This document shows, piece by piece, positions 9,947-52,488 of a stretch of 64,000 bases of DNA. The stretch comes from Candidatus Dadabacteria bacterium (GTDB lineage: Bacteria; Desulfobacterota_D; UBA1144; Nemesobacterales; Mycalebacteriaceae). A program made the translations under genes and the position numbers. Each line of letters starts with the position of its first letter. Within the stretch, counting starts at the first letter, position 1. Location: the NCBI GenBank assembly GCA_026708565.1, contig JAPOUR010000032.1, positions 9,081 through 73,080 on the forward strand, written 5' to 3'. The notes under the pieces were generated by a model that worked only from the letters and a program-made list of their open reading frames with translations, searched no databases and was not told the origin of the DNA.

Positions 9947-11057
9947 TTTCCAGAACTGTTCCTAAAACTATGTCCGCGCACCTGTTGAATTCCTCAATAA
10001 CAAGATGCTCATTAACCGTGTGGAGTTCATACATGCCCGTTCCGAGATTGACGCACTCTATGCCCTTGCGGTTGAAGAAATTGGCGTCGCACCCGCCGCC
10101 GCTTGTGTGAAAAACCACCGGAAAACCCGTTTCGCGCGCGACACTCTCCACCATTTTTGCAATACGGGAGGATTCGGACACATCCATCAGCGGATAAATG
10201 GGCTCGCGCGTTATCTTCACATCCGGTTTGCCCCCGCGCGCCTTTGCCGATGCGGCGATAAAGCGCTCCTCCATGTGGTCCATCTGCTTTGCGAGTTTTT
10301 CCTCATTGTGGCTTCTTGCCTCGCACAAAAGGGACACGGAACCCGGAATTATGTTGATTGCCGTTCCGCCCGATATCTTCCCCACATTGGCGGTGGTCTC
10401 AAAGTCTATCCTTCCCAGTTTCATCCCTGATATGGCGTCCGCCGCAATTTCTATGGCGCTTACGCCGTCCTCCGGGCACAGGCCGGCGTGCGCCTCAACG
10501 CCCTTTATTTCCACATTCATCATGTCGGAGGCGGGGCATTTGACAACAAGCCGCTCCGGTGTGCTGCTGTCAAGAACTATTCCCTCGGCGGACTCAAACA
10601 GCGAAGGGTCAATATGCTTTGCCCCCAGTAGGCCGACCTCTTCGCATATTGTGAACGCTATCTCAATGTCGCCGTGGGGAAGGGCGTTCTCTTTGAGGGA
10701 GCGCGCGACCTCAACAATCACCGAGACGCCGCTTTTGTCATCGCTGCCCAAAATGGTGTCGCCGCCGCTTCTGAGAAAGCCGTCTTCCACGCGCGGGTTT
10801 ATGCCCCTGCCCGGCGCGACCGTGTCCATGTGGGCGGAAAGAAGAAGGGGAGGGGCGCTTGTGTTGCCCCTTATCTTCACAATCAGGTTTCCGGTGTCGC
10901 CGCCGACTTTTTCTCCGCAGTCATCGTAAGAGCAGTCCGCGCCGAGTTCCCGCATCTGCTTTTCCAGAACCAGCGCGACATCCCTCTCACAACGTGACTC
11001 GCTGTCTATCCGGATGATATCCGTCAGGTGCTCCAGCATTCTCGTGTATGAAATCAT
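9921..11057 (-). CDS. pepT: Peptidase T-like M20 family tripeptidase.
   Basis: Motifs HMDTV and GSDDKSGV. A GGAGG ribosome-binding site lies 7 nt upstream of the ATG of MISYTRMLEHL. The longer ORF-track N-terminus is rejected. Confidence 0.7.
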   Translation of the reverse strand: MISYTRMLEHLTDIIRIDSESRCERDVALVLEKQMRELGADCSYDDCGEKVGGDTGNLIVKIRGNTSAPPLLLSAHMDTVAPGRGINPRVEDGFLRSGGDTILGSDDKSGVSVIVEVARSLKENALPHGDIEIAFTICEEVGLLGAKHIDPSLFESAEGIVLDSSTPERLVVKCPASDMMNVEIKGVEAHAGLCPEDGVSAIEIAADAISGMKLGRIDFETTANVGKISGGTAINIIPGSVSLLCEARSHNEEKLAKQMDHMEERFIAASAKARGGKPDVKITREPIYPLMDVSESSRIAKMVESVARETGFPVVFHTSGGGCDANFFNRKGIECVNLGTGMYELHTVNEHLVIEEFNRCADIVLGTVLENVGAKQAN

Positions 11058-47414: not shown

Positions 47415-48211
47415 GCACACCTTTTTTACTTGCGGCGATAGGGGCTTTGCTCCTGTTTATGGGGGCAAAGATACTCAAAGAGTATGAGCGGGGGGTGGTT
47501 ATGCGTCTTGGCCGCGTGGTCGGCATCAAGGGGCCGGGGTTTGTCTGGATAATCCCCTTCATAGATAAGATGACAAAGATAAGCCTTCGCGTAATCGCGA
47601 TGGATGTTCCGCCTCAGGATGTCATCACCAAAGACAATGTTTCAGTGAAGGTGAACGCCGTTCTTTATTTCAGGGTCGTCAACCCGATAAACACCATAGT
47701 GAAGGTTGAGAATTACTATTACGCCACGTCCCAACTTGCGCAGACAACACTGCGGAGTGTGCTGGGGCAGGTTGAGTTGGATGAGTTGCTGACCGAAAGG
47801 GAGGAGCTCAATATGAAGTTGCAGGAGATTCTGGATTCTCAAACGGATGACTGGGGAATCAAGGTTACTCTTGTGGAGGTCAAGCATGTTGACCTGCCTC
47901 AGGAGATGCAGCGGGCGATGGCTCAGCAAGCCGAAGCGGAGAGGGAGAGAAGGGCGCGAATAATAAGCGCGGAGGGAGAGTTTCAGGCGTCGCAGAAAAT
48001 ATCCGAGGCGTCCGAGGTTCTTTCAAAAAATCCCGTGTCTCTTCAGTTGAGGTATTTGCAGGCAATGTCGGACATATCGGGCGAGCACAATTCAACCATC
48101 ATTCTGCCGCTTCCGATTGACATACTGAAGCCGTTTGCGGAAAGAGCCGCGGGCGGCGCTCCGATTCAAAAAGCGGTGAGCGGGAAAGACCCTTTCAAAG
48201 CGCCGGAGTGA
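47411..48211 (+). CDS. SPFH/band-7 stomatin-like protein.
   Basis: Sequence ...[30 protein letters not shown]..., overlapping nfeD by 4 bp. The nfeD-stomatin operon is canonical. Confidence 0.8.
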
Positions 48212-48241
48212 TAGAGCAGTGTAAGACTGTTTCGCGTTGTT

Positions 48242-49546
48242 ATGATTAAACATCTCAAGATGAGCAATGTGGGACCAGCTCCGGCTATGGAGTTGGAGTT
48301 TGGCGACAGACTGAACCTGCTCACGGGGGATAATGGATTAGGCAAGAGTTTTCTGCTGGATATAGCATGGTGGGCGATGACCCGCATATGGCCAGCGGAG
48401 TTAAACACGAATCTGACATCGGGCAGGGTGGCGTTGCCTACTGAGAAGAAACAGAAATCTGAAATCAGTTATTCCTTCTCCGCATTCTCTACGAACACAA
48501 AACCACATACCAGCACTTATGAACCGGAAATCCAAAGTTGGTCTGCTCCAAGTTGGCCTGCTCCAAAAGGGAGACCCCCAAACCCCGGATTGGTGTTTTA
48601 TGCCTTGGCCGACGGTAGTTTTGCAGTTTGGGACCCCGCCAGAAATTACTGGACAGCACAAACCGGGAACGGAGAACGTCCGGTTGCTTATGTGTTCAGC
48701 CCCAAAGAGGTATGGGATGGATTGCAACGCAAAGACGGTTCTTGGCTTTGCAACGGACTGATTCGCGATTGGGCTGGCTGGCAAAAAGAAAAAGGACAAG
48801 CTTTCCAGTCCTTAAAGGATGTGCTGGAGGTTTTGTCACCGTCCACTGAGGAAAAGATTACTCCCGGCGAGTTGACACGCATCAGTTTGGATGATGTGCG
48901 AGACATGCCGACATTGAAAATGCCTTACGGTCAGGATGTCGCCGTAGTCCATGCGTCTGCGGGAATGCGCCGGATTATTTCTCTGGCTTACTTTCTGGTC
49001 TGGTGCTGGGAAGAACATGTCAAAGCCAAGAAATTGCAGGGAGATGAAGATGAACCGGAAAAAGGTGTGGTCTTTCTGGTTGATGAAGTTGAGGCACACC
49101 TCCATCCGAAATGGCAACGCATGGTAATCCCGTCCCTTCTAAAGGTTATGGAAACTCTAACAGAATCCGTCCCTGTGCAACTGATAGTAGCAACTCATTC
49201 ACCCTTGGTTATGGCCTCGGTGGAAACGCTGTTTGACAACGAGAAGGATGCTTGGTTTGACCTTGACCTTAAAGACAATGAAGTCGTTCTAACCCCTCGG
49301 CCCTTTGTAAGGCAAGGTAATGTTGCTCATTGGCTGACAAGCGCAGCCTTTGATTTGGAGTCCGCTTACGGCTCTGATGAAATCAAAAAAGTACTGGAAG
49401 AAGCCTCCTTTGCTTTGAGCAATGAAAATTTCAGTAAAGAAGAAGCAAAAAAGTTAGATAAGCGCCTGAGAAAAGTCTTGTCAAGTACCGACCCCTTATG
49501 GGCACGGTGGCGTTTTGAGGGCGAAAAAAGAGGGTGGCTACGATGA
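48242..49546 (+). CDS. ptuA: Septu PtuA-like ABC-type ATPase of the AAA_15/AAA_21 family.
   Basis: Walker A LLTGDNGLGKSF and Walker B/H-loop VVFLVDEVEAHLHP...VATHSP, with a long insert between them. It is coupled by a 13-bp overlap to an HNH gene. GC is about 49%. Confidence 0.65.
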   Translation: MIKHLKMSNVGPAPAMELEFGDRLNLLTGDNGLGKSFLLDIAWWAMTRIWPAELNTNLTSGRVALPTEKKQKSEISYSFSAFSTNTKPHTSTYEPEIQSWSAPSWPAPKGRPPNPGLVFYALADGSFAVWDPARNYWTAQTGNGERPVAYVFSPKEVWDGLQRKDGSWLCNGLIRDWAGWQKEKGQAFQSLKDVLEVLSPSTEEKITPGELTRISLDDVRDMPTLKMPYGQDVAVVHASAGMRRIISLAYFLVWCWEEHVKAKKLQGDEDEPEKGVVFLVDEVEAHLHPKWQRMVIPSLLKVMETLTESVPVQLIVATHSPLVMASVETLFDNEKDAWFDLDLKDNEVVLTPRPFVRQGNVAHWLTSAAFDLESAYGSDEIKKVLEEASFALSNENFSKEEAKKLDKRLRKVLSSTDPLWARWRFEGEKRGWLR

Positions 49547-50148
49547 TTCATGTCAAGTTGCGACCGGAGCCTGATACATTCAATAGCAGGGTTAGGCAAA
49601 AAGGTCATGCTTGGATGAACAAACACCAGACTCTACCGCCCAGCAATAAATTCCCTCGCTACTGGAAAGATTGTCTGGATGATTTGCGTTCAAGTTATAA
49701 AGACCATTGCGCTTACCTCGCCGTACAGATTGAAGAAGTTGAAGGAGAATACCCTTCTGTGGATCACTTCTTAGCAAAATCGAGACGACCCGACCTTGCA
49801 TACGAATGGAGCAACTATCGTCTTTCATGCTCAGAAATAAATAGTCTCAAAGGCAACTCTGATGATGTATTAGACCCGTTTGAAATAAAGAACAACTGTT
49901 TTCATCTTGATCTTGAATTTTTAATCGGGCATATCTACTCCAATAAGGCACTACCGCCTGACCAAAGAGAGGGGATTCAAGCGACTATAGATAAGCTCAG
50001 ATTGAACAATGATAAATATCGGGAGATGAGGGAGCAACATTACCAAGATTGCCGTGAGGGACACTACGACAGCGATTACTTGAAACGCATATCTCCCTTT
50101 GTTTGGTCGGAGGCTAAACGGCAGGGGTTGCTGAAAGATAACGGCTAA
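49534..50148 (+). CDS. ptuB: Septu PtuB-like HNH endonuclease of the TIGR02646-like family, with a partly degenerate zinc finger.
   Basis: Sequence HCAYL...VDHFLAKSRRPDLAYEWSNYRLSCSEINSLKGN retains the HNH His/Asn residues, but the second Cys of each CxxC pair is replaced. Confidence 0.6.
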   Translation: MATMIHVKLRPEPDTFNSRVRQKGHAWMNKHQTLPPSNKFPRYWKDCLDDLRSSYKDHCAYLAVQIEEVEGEYPSVDHFLAKSRRPDLAYEWSNYRLSCSEINSLKGNSDDVLDPFEIKNNCFHLDLEFLIGHIYSNKALPPDQREGIQATIDKLRLNNDKYREMREQHYQDCREGHYDSDYLKRISPFVWSEAKRQGLLKDNG

Positions 50149-50183
50149 CCAACCACCCGTATTGGAGTTGAGAGGAAACAAAC

Positions 50184-51035
50184 ATGAAAACAGAAACCAA
50201 AGGCGGCAGGACCGCCCTGATAAGGGCTGCAAAAGAAGGCGATACCAATAAGATACGGAAATTGCTGAAAGCAGGGGCAAACATAGAAGCAAAGGATAAT
50301 GAGGGTAGGACGGCTCTTATAATCGCAACAGAATATGAGCGCTCTCAAGCAATGGGGTTACTGTTGAAAGCAGGAGCGGATACAGAGGCAAGAGCAAAGA
50401 AGCGCAGACGGACATCTCTGATGATTGCGGCGGCAAGAAGCGGAACAGGTAGGGTGGCTGAACTACTGAAAGCAGGGGCAAACACAGAAGCAAAAGATAA
50501 TGAGGGCAGGACGGCTCTTATAATCGCAACAGAATATGAGCGCTCTCAAGCAATGGGGTTACTGTTGAAAGCAGGAGCGGATACAGAGGCAAGAGCAAAG
50601 AAGCGCAGACGGACATCTCTGATGATTGCGGCGGCAAGAAGCGGAACAGGTAGGGTGGCTGAACTACTGAAAGCAGGGGCAAATACAGAAGCAAAGGATA
50701 ATGAGGGTAAGACGGCTCTTATAATCGCAGCAGAAAACGGGCACTCTCAAACAACGGCGGAGCTACTGGAAGCGGGAGCAGACATAGAAGCAAAAGATAA
50801 ATATGGCGGAACAGCCCTTATAGTAGCAGTAGGAAACGAACATCATAAAGTAACGGCGGAACTACTGAAAGCAGGAGCGGCAAAAGGTGAAAATGGCAGA
50901 AAACTTCACAAAGCAACAGCCCTTCGGGAAGCAAGAGACCTCTGGGAGAAAACAAGAAAAACCAATATAAGTAGCAAGACCACCCTAATAAAGGCTACCA
51001 AAAAGGCGATACCAACAAGATACGAGAATTGCTGA
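50184..51035 (+). CDS. Ankyrin-repeat protein, N-terminal part of a probably frameshifted gene.
   Basis: About 8 ANK repeats (GRTALIIA...LLKAGA). The reading frame continues in the +2 frame after an A5GG tract at 51000-51006. Confidence 0.6.
   Translation: MKTETKGGRTALIRAAKEGDTNKIRKLLKAGANIEAKDNEGRTALIIATEYERSQAMGLLLKAGADTEARAKKRRRTSLMIAAARSGTGRVAELLKAGANTEAKDNEGRTALIIATEYERSQAMGLLLKAGADTEARAKKRRRTSLMIAAARSGTGRVAELLKAGANTEAKDNEGKTALIIAAENGHSQTTAELLEAGADIEAKDKYGGTALIVAVGNEHHKVTAELLKAGAAKGENGRKLHKATALREARDLWEKTRKTNISSKTTLIKATKKAIPTRYENC
50271..50740. repeat. Near-perfect 201-bp tandem repeat, about 2.3 copies, encoding 67-aa double-ANK units.
   Basis: Units start at 50271, 50472 and 50673. 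Copies 1 and 2 differ at only a few positions. Confidence 0.9.
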
Positions 51036-51940
51036 AAACAGGGGCAAACATAGAAGCAAAAGATAACCGAGGCAGGACGGCTCTTATAATCGCAACAGAA
51101 TACGAGCACTCTCAAGCAATGGGGTTACTGTTGAAAGCGGGAGCAGATACAGAAGCAAGGAGAGAGATGCGTAGGTGGACACCTCTGATGATTGCGGCAA
51201 GATTTGAAACAAGTAATCTGGCGGAACTGCTGAAAGCAGGGGCAGACACAGAAGCAAAGGATAATGAGGGCAAGACAGCCCTTATAATCGCAGCAGAATA
51301 CGGGTGCTCTCAAGCAACGGCGGAGTTACTGAAAGCGAAGGCAGACATAGAAGCAAAGGATACATATGGCAGAACAGCCCTTAGAGTAGCAACAGGAAAA
51401 AGACGCCATAAAGTAACGGCGCAACTGCTGAAGGCAGGGGCGAGAGTAGAGGAAGCGAAGGCAGGGGCAAAAGTAGGGGAAGCAAGAGAAACCAATATAA
51501 AAGTTCAGAGCCCGGATGCCCATAAAGTTTCTTTCTCCACAGAAGCGGAGTTAGAAAACTTTATTTGTTCGCATTGGTACCACACTATCTTTGGCAATGC
51601 TTTTGACATTTACAAAGACACGGAAGGGCGAAGCGGCAAGCAATACCCCACGGACCTGAGAGAGCGGATTGATATTCTTGCCATAAGCAATGACAAGGAA
51701 ACTTTTCTTGTCATTGAACTGAAAGTGGGCAAAGCCCCCGATACCGTTGTCGCACAATGCCAGCGTTACATGGGCTTTGTCAAAGACAAAGTGGCAAAGA
51801 ACGGCCAGAAAGTGCGGGGAGCCATAGTAGCCACAGAAAAAGACAAGAAGATGGAACGGGCTTTGTCAGAAGCATCTAATGTTGACTTCTACACCTACAA
51901 GGTTGACTATAAGGCCGTTCAAATGAGCAGAGTTGAGTGA
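51029..51940 (+). CDS. Ankyrin repeats followed by a C-terminal PD-(D/E)xK nuclease-like domain (NucS/DUF91-like or Shedu-like). This is probably the 3' part of the same gene as 50184..51035.
   Basis: ANK repeats, then RIDILAISNDKETFLVIELKVGKAPDTVVAQCQRYMGFV, which carries the D...E-x-K core and the QxxRYMG motif. Confidence 0.55.
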   Translation: MLKTGANIEAKDNRGRTALIIATEYEHSQAMGLLLKAGADTEARREMRRWTPLMIAARFETSNLAELLKAGADTEAKDNEGKTALIIAAEYGCSQATAELLKAKADIEAKDTYGRTALRVATGKRRHKVTAQLLKAGARVEEAKAGAKVGEARETNIKVQSPDAHKVSFSTEAELENFICSHWYHTIFGNAFDIYKDTEGRSGKQYPTDLRERIDILAISNDKETFLVIELKVGKAPDTVVAQCQRYMGFVKDKVAKNGQKVRGAIVATEKDKKMERALSEASNVDFYTYKVDYKAVQMSRVE

Positions 51941-52488
51941 GTTCCGCCGATTTGGAAAAACTCCCGCCACTGTTTATAATGCGCGCAAATACCGGATTTG
52001 CGGTGCCCGAAATGGTTTTCAGTCAGAACGAAATAGGGTCGGAACGACTGCTTTTTGAAGTGTCAAAAAGCGCCGGGTGGCTGACCAATATAGAAGAAAT
52101 GGCGGACGGCAGCGGGGAAACAACCCTCGGCTCCCGCATTCTTTTCAGCGCGGGCGTTGAGAAGATCGGCGCACAACTGCATGTCTGCGGCGAAGTGTCG
52201 TTTGAGGTTGTGTCGCGCTGCTCAAGATGCCTCGGCTCTGCAAAAGAACGGGTGCGCAGCCCGATAGAGTCCTTTCTGCCCATGCCCGGCGGCGGAAACG
52301 TCATAGACATCTCGGACGATATGAGGGAACATGTGGCAATGGCAATGCCGCAGAGAGTGGTGTGCCGGAGCGAGTGCAAAGGACTTTGCGCCGGATGCGG
52401 GGCAAACTTGAATGAAGGTTTCTGCGATTGCGCAAGCGACCGGACTGACCCGCGCCTCGGCGCGCTGAAAGACGCCCGGACGGCCTGA
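51937..52488 (+). CDS. yceD: YceD/DUF177 family protein, needed for large ribosomal subunit and 23S rRNA accumulation.
   Basis: C-terminal Cys cluster CSRCLG...CRSECKGLCAGCGANLNEGFCDC. Its position immediately upstream of rpmF is conserved. The start is uncertain. Confidence 0.7.
   Translation: MSSADLEKLPPLFIMRANTGFAVPEMVFSQNEIGSERLLFEVSKSAGWLTNIEEMADGSGETTLGSRILFSAGVEKIGAQLHVCGEVSFEVVSRCSRCLGSAKERVRSPIESFLPMPGGGNVIDISDDMREHVAMAMPQRVVCRSECKGLCAGCGANLNEGFCDCASDRTDPRLGALKDARTA

Follow-up and report, generated by a model that had tools for sequence, protein, structure and literature searches.

A frameshifted ankyrin-repeat gene with a NucS-like nuclease domain beside Septu in Candidatus Dadabacteria

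Results

Two adjacent ankyrin ORFs are the halves of one ancestral gene

The stretch of DNA analysed here is a 64,000-nt window on contig JAPOUR010000032.1 of Candidatus Dadabacteria (GCA_026708565.1), and all coordinates below are positions within this window. Directly downstream of the two genes of a Septu defence system, the window contains two adjacent open reading frames (ORFs) that both encode ankyrin (ANK) repeats, the second of which ends in a C-terminal nuclease domain (Table 1). This is the arrangement that a preliminary description of the locus had reported, and both ORFs are present as given there. ORF1 starts with an ATG preceded by a Shine-Dalgarno-like motif, GAGAGGA, read from the sequence, and stops 10 codons past the frameshift described below. 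At the 5′ end of ORF2, inspection of the sequence reveals neither a canonical start nor a Shine-Dalgarno motif. The candidate starts are a TTG at 51029, which overlaps the ORF1 stop (TTGCTGA), and in-frame ATGs at 51167 and 51188, which have AAGGAG (51157-62) and AGGTGG (51173-78) ahead of them and from either of which initiation would cut through an ankyrin repeat. Public gene callers start ORF2 at ATG 51188, yielding a 250-aa protein (P0001).

The two frames meet at an AAAAAGG tract (51000-51006). If ACC AAA AAG is read and G51005 is then read again, a −1 shift, ORF1 and ORF2 are joined into a single product of 585 aa (...LIKATKK followed by GDTNKIRELLKTGANIE), and the join is as seamless as had been proposed for a product of about this size. 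The segment after the junction, GDTNKIRELLKTGANIE, mirrors the N-terminal LIRAAKEGDTNKIRKLLKAGANIE, and the peptide that spans the two frames in the joined product is LIKATKKGDTNK. Homology to the first ankyrin repeat, R1, follows frame 0 before the shift and the frame of ORF2 after it.

A sister genome provides the allele in which the two frames are one. The contig in question (L112; ERZ21788732 contig_5, 1.2 Mb), which is separated from the window by a synonymous divergence (dS) of ~0.1, carries the same island and reads GCT ACT AAA AAA GGC GAT ACC, in frame, exactly at the predicted place. The two ORFs are therefore halves of one gene, as the preliminary description had supposed, and the in-frame 12-repeat fusion is the ancestral state. 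Over ~1480 nt of ANK sequence the frameshift position is the only indel between the window and L112, whose ATG start is intact; relative to L112 the window allele has one base missing and one substitution, an A5 tract standing against A6 with an adjacent C/T substitution.

The frameshift recurs outside the window. Two other short-read assemblies from the same population, ERZ27276908 k141_17025 (L001/L103) and ERZ23500915 scaffold_58 (L002/L105), contain exactly the same CCAAAAAGGCGATACC with A5GG, so that the A5 tract is identical in three assemblies. Because these two assemblies share A5GG yet differ from the window elsewhere, by scattered single-nucleotide polymorphisms, an error in a single assembly is excluded, and the DNA does carry the frameshift. 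Divergence among the three frameshifted assemblies is only ~0.1%; L001 is in addition without one of the 201-bp units described below, and its ORF1 is 216 aa long.

The in-frame L112 allele has a different defect. Its nuclease region (10180-10660, equivalent to 51574-51940 in the window) contains 13 deletions of 1-11 nt, one of which removes the E-L of the ExK motif. Identity to the window is ~78% (~22% mismatches) and readable pieces occur in all three frames; the adjacent ANK region is intact. Should this decay be genuine, the full-length protein has been inactivated by different routes in two lineages (see also Discussion).

The C-terminal domain is NucS-like at the domain level

Searched on its own, the C-terminal domain scores above the Pfam gathering thresholds for PDDEXK_4 (27.4 bits versus 22.3) and NucS_C (25.6 bits versus 24). 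The D...E-x-K core and the Q..Y motif noted in the preliminary description are all in place (codons D 51671-73, E 51716-18, K 51722-24, Q 51755-57 and Y 51767-69), and the domain retains every family-invariant residue (D64, E79, K81, D87, Q92 and Y96). Homologues of the domain number 1814 at E<=1e-3 and 628 at E<=1e-10 among 1.84 billion cluster representatives searched with HMMER, and in these the nuclease is almost always C-terminal. A profile search returned 2639 proteins at E<=1e-10, for which the JGI name is 'restriction system protein'; the precomputed Pfam domains of the profile-matched relatives are NucS_C and YhcG_C.

The domain had been described as NucS- or Shedu-like, and the two halves of that label fare differently. 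The family profile matches NucS (2vld, 4e-7) and EndoMS (1.5e-3) in the PDB, and scores for the Shedu protein SduA reach only 7.9, 6.1 and 5.5; sequence and structure comparisons of the domain agree. No DUF4263 match was found in Pfam at E<=1, and no SduA among the PADLOC matches. A relationship to Shedu at family level was accordingly rejected, and 'Shedu-like' holds at the superfamily level only. 'NucS-like' is supported at the domain level. The protein as a whole is no ortholog of NucS: NF003270, the equivalog model in NCBIfam, gives 35.4 bits against a cut-off of 216 bits, over profile positions 161-237 only, and the NucS N-terminal domain is absent, the N-terminus being ANK. The closest stand-alone homolog of the nuclease domain (P0002, ENA, 161 aa) is 59% identical and has a signal-peptide-like N-terminus, MKKHFILTLSFLCLLSATPAEA, which hints at a secreted version of the nuclease.

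Ankyrin repeats stand in place of the usual N-terminal domain of PDC-S02

The nuclease domain, put forward earlier as part of a possibly new effector, is itself already known: it corresponds to the C-terminal half of PDC-S02 (PDLC04824), a candidate family in PADLOC. The window protein matches this profile with E 1.3e-50, over positions 175-306 of 308 only, and positions 1-174 are unmatched in it as well as in two intact Dadabacteria paralogs, P0005 and P0272, that we describe below. Canonical members (P0009, P0010 and P0015) match positions 1-307 with E 1e-107 to 1e-113; they are ~310 aa long, and their nuclease domains are 40-55% identical to that of the window protein. What is rare here is the presence of ankyrin repeats in place of the usual N-terminal domain.

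Judged by structure comparison, the ~170-aa N-terminal domain of canonical PDC-S02 proteins is predicted to be an EVE/YTH-like reader of modified bases, with scores of 10.2 for the EVE protein PH1033, 9.7 for the EVE-HNH restriction enzyme VcaM4I, 8.0-9.4 for YTH domains, 6.8 for THYN1 and 6.4 for the N-terminal domain of McrB. With such a domain, the canonical family would be laid out like a modification-dependent restriction enzyme, with a PUA/EVE-type reader ahead of a PD-(D/E)xK nuclease. In this Dadabacteria lineage, ankyrin repeats appear to have replaced that predicted reader.

The ANK form is a rare domain-swap variant of the candidate family. Among the best 152 cluster representatives, only P0001, the window gene itself, and P0005 carry ankyrin repeats, and a scan of JGI metagenomes with P0005 returned nuclease-only or ANK-only loci and no further fusion. 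A scan of genome contigs with the pattern [VT][VI]GQ..RYM[GS] found canonical loci only; this pattern excludes the window subfamily (VVAQCQRYMG), so close relatives could not appear and the spread of the ANK variant outside Dadabacteria cannot be stated from it. The literature searched contained nothing specific on defence proteins that combine ANK repeats with a PD-(D/E)xK domain. A phage origin was considered and rejected: no relative was found in IMG/VR, and GenBank phages give generic ANK matches only, none of which covers the nuclease.

The ankyrin array grew by tandem duplication

Both ankyrin families score above the Pfam gathering thresholds in the fused protein, Ank_2 with E 5e-60 (200 bits) and Ank with E 5e-53 (174 bits) over 9 stretches; parsing by hand gives 7 + 5 = 12 repeats in two blocks. 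Block A runs R1-R2-R3-R2-R3-R4-R5, followed by a C-cap and a linker (..ALREARDLWEKTRKTNIS), and block B runs R1″-R2″-R3″-R4″-R5″, followed by a linker and the nuclease. Because block B matches block A repeat by repeat (78% amino-acid and ~85% DNA identity) and the end of the linker, ACCAATATAA, occurs twice (50961-70 and 51491-500, within direct repeat D6 at 50950-50970 and 51480-51500), the gene was enlarged when the entire five-repeat module was duplicated in tandem and in frame, with the junction near 50971. The ratio of nonsynonymous to synonymous divergence (dN/dS) between the two blocks is 0.42.

A further duplication, of the 201-bp R2-R3 unit in block A, is younger than that of the module; its two copies differ at 3 nucleotides, 3/3 of which are synonymous. 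The frameshift, located within R1″ ~30 nt past the module junction, arose separately from the module duplication.

The number of ankyrin repeats varies among near-identical strains (3, 4, 5, 10 or 12). L103 has a single 201-bp unit, against two in each of the window, L105 and L112, and the intact paralogs differ too, with 3 repeats in P0272 and 4 in P0005. In the linker between block B and the nuclease, a 27-bp duplication stands in place of the C-cap-like segment that is kept in block A and in P0005.

Intact paralogs lie at a different chromosomal locus

The preliminary description had suggested looking for other fusions of ANK repeats to a PD-(D/E)xK domain and for their association with ptuAB. 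Two were found, both as intact single ORFs and with no such association. P0005 (343 aa) comprises an N-cap, four ANK repeats, a C-cap, a linker and a nuclease domain 74% identical to that of the window protein; P0272 (313 aa) has one repeat fewer. Both come from metagenome-assembled genomes of Candidatus Dadabacteria, are named 'endonuclease NucS' at NCBI and are encoded immediately downstream of AbiEi/AbiEii between carB and thiC, a chromosomal locus different from that in the window. P0272 and the frameshifted L001 both come from metagenome assembly ERZ27276908, so an intact paralog is also present in this population.

The locus of the intact paralogs is itself variable (L003 9033-9735 compared with L116 6943-12470): between the ANK-nuclease gene and thiC there is nothing in one strain and ~5 kb in another, including a gene for a 968-aa Calx-beta/autotransporter protein.

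Septu and the split gene share a strain-variable islet

The assignment of the upstream genes to Septu is confirmed by PADLOC for both PtuA and PtuB, although PtuB scores 44.2 bits against NCBIfam TIGR02646, below its cutoff of 52.15. The end of PtuB and the start of ORF1 are 35 nt apart. In six sister assemblies (L102, L104, L106, L107, L110 and L111), whose FabF is identical to that of the window, the site is empty, with ~48209 joined to ~51944 via ~90 bp. The islet is inserted in the window, L103, L105 and L112; contigs L108 and L109 start within the nuclease domain, which shows that the islet is present in their samples as well. The G+C content of the islet is 43-50%, compared with 55-60% in the flanks. 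Because the site is empty in these sister assemblies, we conclude that the 3.7-kb islet comes and goes as a unit, with PtuA, PtuB and the ANK-nuclease gained or lost together.

An imperfect 9-bp repeat, GAGCAG(T/A)GT, occurs at both junctions of the islet (48214-48222 and 51925-51933) and may represent microhomology or a target-site signature of insertion; GAGCAGAGT is present once in a sister empty site (L104 5260-5275). The PtuA subtype is found at 65-88% amino-acid identity in Planctomycetota, Negativicutes, Spirochaetaceae, Accumulibacter and Pseudomonas aeruginosa, and this unusual conservation points to recent wide horizontal spread.

A third Septu-associated component, as which the ANK-nuclease had also been proposed, would be expected to keep company with PtuAB, and no conserved co-occurrence was found. 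A PtuA/PtuB-like neighbour is present in 0/80 genomic loci of the nuclease family, with two weak ATPase matches only; in the two PtuA relatives inspected (P0294 and P0302) unrelated genes follow PtuB; and the paralogs lie beside AbiEi/AbiEii. The arrangement of Septu with an ANK-nuclease is common only to same-species islands. We therefore rejected this role: the ANK-nuclease is a module in its own right, which settles next to varying defence or toxin-antitoxin cassettes.

Table 1. Features of the Septu and ankyrin-nuclease islet (positions in the 64,000-nt window)
Feature	Position	Strand	Description
Strain-variable 3.7-kb islet (PtuA, PtuB, ORF1, ORF2)	48210..51943	.	Between band-7/SPFH gene and yceD
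PtuA, Septu ATPase	48242..49546	+	PADLOC PDLC00307, E 7e-177; Pfam AAA_21, AAA_15
PtuB, Septu HNH nuclease	49534..50148	+	PADLOC PDLC00348, E 4e-69
ORF1	50184..51035	+	283 aa, frame 0; ANK block A and start of block B
Two tandem 201-bp units (R2-R3)	50304..50705	+	Tandem Repeats Finder (TRF) period 201, 95% match; proteins identical
End of duplicated module, internal tandem-duplication junction (..KTRKTNIS followed by SKTTLIKA..)	50950..50972	+	Direct repeat D6; repeat anatomy
Frameshift site C.AAA.AAG.G	50999..51006	+	One base fewer than in-frame L112 allele ACT AAA AAA GGC
ANK block B (rest of R1″, then R2″-R5″) and linker	51005..51481	+	ORF2 frame
ORF2 as listed	51029..51940	+	303 aa from TTG 51029; frame open from 50975
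27-bp tandem duplication, linker between block B and nuclease	51430..51483	+	89% identity
NucS_C-like PD-(D/E)xK nuclease domain	51482..51937	+	C-terminal half of PADLOC PDC-S02

Discussion

A probable, recently broken copy of a rare ANK-nuclease gene

The preliminary description had listed a pseudogene among several explanations for the homopolymer break, and this is the one that we consider most likely. At a probability of roughly 0.55, the window copy is a recently frameshift-broken version, by a 1-nt deletion, of a rare ANK-guided NucS-like nuclease that resides together with Septu on a mobile islet. The ancestral gene encoded a 585-aa cytoplasmic protein of 12 ankyrin repeats and a NucS_C-like PD-(D/E)xK domain; the window copy was co-acquired with Septu on the 3.7-kb islet. 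Standard decoding of the window allele gives an ANK-only protein of 283 aa and leaves the nuclease half without a proper start, and the window copy would at best give a weakly expressed, N-terminally truncated ANK-nuclease. The frameshift itself is an ordinary mutation and not a recoding signal.

Several observations weigh against this reading. ORF2 is open over 303 codons with every catalytic residue intact, and when started at TTG 51029 it is nearly co-linear with the intact paralog P0005. The frameshift allele occurs in several samples, and the numbering of neighbouring protein accessions suggests that NCBI annotated two coding sequences and not a pseudogene. Between the window and L112, dN/dS is 0.30 in block A and 0.47 in block B, both below 1, which together with the synonymous differences between the 201-bp units fits selection until recently, or still. 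The decay of the nuclease region in L112 is itself less secure than it looks: its divergence of 22% exceeds the neighbouring dS of ~0.1, the same contig shows single-base indels in housekeeping genes, and noise in the long-read assembly may explain some of the decay. PDC-S02 is a candidate system only, the one representative tested so far gave no protection against T7, T5 or T4 in E. coli (10.1101/2024.09.26.614923), and a defence role for the intact ANK-nuclease is a prediction. The intact nuclease carries little weight among these points, because the frameshifted assemblies differ by only ~0.1% and a young pseudogene would look alike; the dN/dS values show past purifying selection and are compatible with a young pseudogene and with two functional genes alike.

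Two functional genes, in which ORF1 is a free seven-repeat ANK protein and ORF2 an ANK-nuclease with five repeats or fewer, acting separately or together, are possible, but we hold this explanation doubtful, and the same applies to the modes of translation that it would call on, re-initiation at TTG 51029 or initiation at ATG 51167 or ATG 51188. From TTG 51029, ORF2 has the architecture of P0005 minus ~20 N-terminal residues; both ORFs are fully open with the nuclease residues intact, the allele recurs in three assemblies, and dN/dS is below 1. Shine-Dalgarno-like AAGGAG and AGGTGG also precede the in-frame ATGs, but such strings in purine-rich ANK codons are found in block A as well and are probably coincidental, and either ATG start cuts an ankyrin repeat. 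The 5′ end of ORF2 is without a canonical start or Shine-Dalgarno motif, the sister genome L112 is in frame, and the ~0.1% difference among the frameshifted assemblies confers no power to reject a young pseudogene. A sequencing or assembly artefact over a truly in-frame genome, another of the explanations raised earlier, would suit a homopolymer site in highly repetitive ANK DNA where contigs L108 and L109 break inside the gene and L112 is in frame. We judge it very unlikely, however: the window, ERZ27276908 and ERZ23500915, the latter two representing at least two further samples, agree on A5GG and differ elsewhere, and what sets the in-frame allele apart is a substitution in addition to the indel (ACT AAAAAA versus ACC AAAAA), which a mere miscount of the tract length would not explain.

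Programmed −1 ribosomal frameshifting or transcriptional slippage at A.AAA.AAG would reconcile the split frame with a functional gene, producing ANK-only and full-length proteins in a fixed ratio. The required shift is indeed −1, the joined product is seamless, and an A-site AAG preceded by AAA fits a slip-prone Lys context; A_AAG is such a context, and dnaX and IS911 use A_AAA_AAG. The heptamer in the window is, however, C_AAA_AAG, on which the P-site tRNA would have to re-pair with CAA, and does not conform to X_XXY_YYZ. No stimulatory RNA structure was found when the 60, 90 and 120 nt downstream (z −0.13, −0.67 and +0.25) and a 106-nt window spanning the site (z +0.69) were compared with shuffled sequences, and there is no clear internal Shine-Dalgarno motif. 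Nor is the shift conserved, L112 being in frame and P0005 and P0272 single ORFs. An A5 tract is too short for efficient transcriptional slippage. We consider programmed shifting improbable and rejected it as the explanation of the break, for want of a heptamer, a downstream structure and conservation; low-level slippage of a single tRNA on A_AAG seems just as improbable. For phase variation, also suggested earlier, no support was found in the assemblies: the A5 tract is short and identical in three of them, and the A6 of L112, which is simply in frame, comes with the adjacent C/T substitution.

Possible function of the intact protein

In the intact protein, the ANK array would bind another protein, the most plausible candidates being a protein of the phage and a host protein altered by it; ligand binding would position or de-repress the D-ExK nuclease, which would then cut DNA. 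Such a protein would be a single-polypeptide sensor-effector travelling in defence islets. Tentatively, and with considerable doubt, P0005, P0272 and their 585-aa ancestral counterpart could represent a new single-protein anti-phage sensor-effector, in which a nuclease scaffold like that of modification-dependent restriction enzymes has had its EVE reader swapped for an ANK array recognising a phage protein, and in which rapid changes in repeat number diversify specificity. The frameshift in the window and the loss of the nuclease in L112 would then be alternative means to silence an effector that is costly or toxic to its own cell.

An improbable alternative outside defence is that a symbiont uses the protein as a eukaryote-like ANK effector or as a toxin, directed at host or competitor DNA in the manner of CifB. 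Toxins of Rickettsia and Wolbachia combine NucS/EndoMS-like PD-(D/E)xK domains with ANK repeats (PMC6133264), as here, and ANK proteins are enriched in sponge metagenomes (PMC8163846). The organism is a Candidatus Dadabacteria, the sample labels suggest that the samples may be sponge metagenomes, and the closest stand-alone homolog, P0002, has a signal-peptide-like N-terminus. The ANK-nuclease proteins, however, have neither a signal peptide nor a secretion-system neighbour; both paralogs have a defence or toxin-antitoxin module (Septu, AbiE) as their immediate neighbour, in variable islets; and the nuclease family, PDC-S02, is embedded in defence loci.

Comparison with known systems

Among the closest known systems is PDC-S02, with which the window protein shares the C-terminal nuclease (PDLC04824) and all invariant residues; the canonical N-terminal domain is predicted to be EVE/YTH-like, and here 5-12 ankyrin repeats are found instead. 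NucS/EndoMS (PDB 2vld, 5gke) differ in having an N-terminal domain that is absent here, and the context is a defence islet and not DNA repair. Restriction enzymes that couple a PUA/EVE domain to a nuclease (VcaM4I, EVE-HNH; PMC7897488, PMC6765204) follow the same logic of an N-terminal reader and a C-terminal nuclease; in the window protein, however, the reader is a protein-binding ANK array and not a modified-base pocket, and the nuclease is of the PD-(D/E)xK and not the HNH type. Shedu (SduA, DUF4263), which is likewise found in defence islands, also consists of one polypeptide in which a regulatory N-terminal region precedes a PD-(D/E)xK nuclease.

In concept, a solenoid-repeat sensor coupled to a nuclease is also what Avs/STAND proteins with tetratricopeptide repeat sensors and eukaryotic RNase L with its ANK sensor have in common. 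Compared with these and with CifB-like toxins, the window protein is far smaller and is without an NTPase switch, kinase or KEN domain. No sequence relationship to any of them was detected beyond generic domains, and the resemblance to Avs and RNase L is drawn from general knowledge.

Implications

For the window copy itself, the result is a probably broken gene that is not part of Septu and whose architecture is real and unusual. As a by-product, canonical PDC-S02 gains a testable assignment as a putative EVE-like reader joined to a NucS-like nuclease. Should the intact proteins prove active, they would show that PDC-S02, a candidate defence family that is very widespread (>1,800 cluster representatives), has a nuclease that can be re-targeted. 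Such re-targeting, if true, would amount to the exchange of an EVE-like nucleic-acid reader for a protein-binding repeat array, in parallel to the sensor swapping of Avs/NLR-type systems, and active intact proteins would constitute a compact system of ~310-340 aa for ANK-mediated recognition in bacteria.

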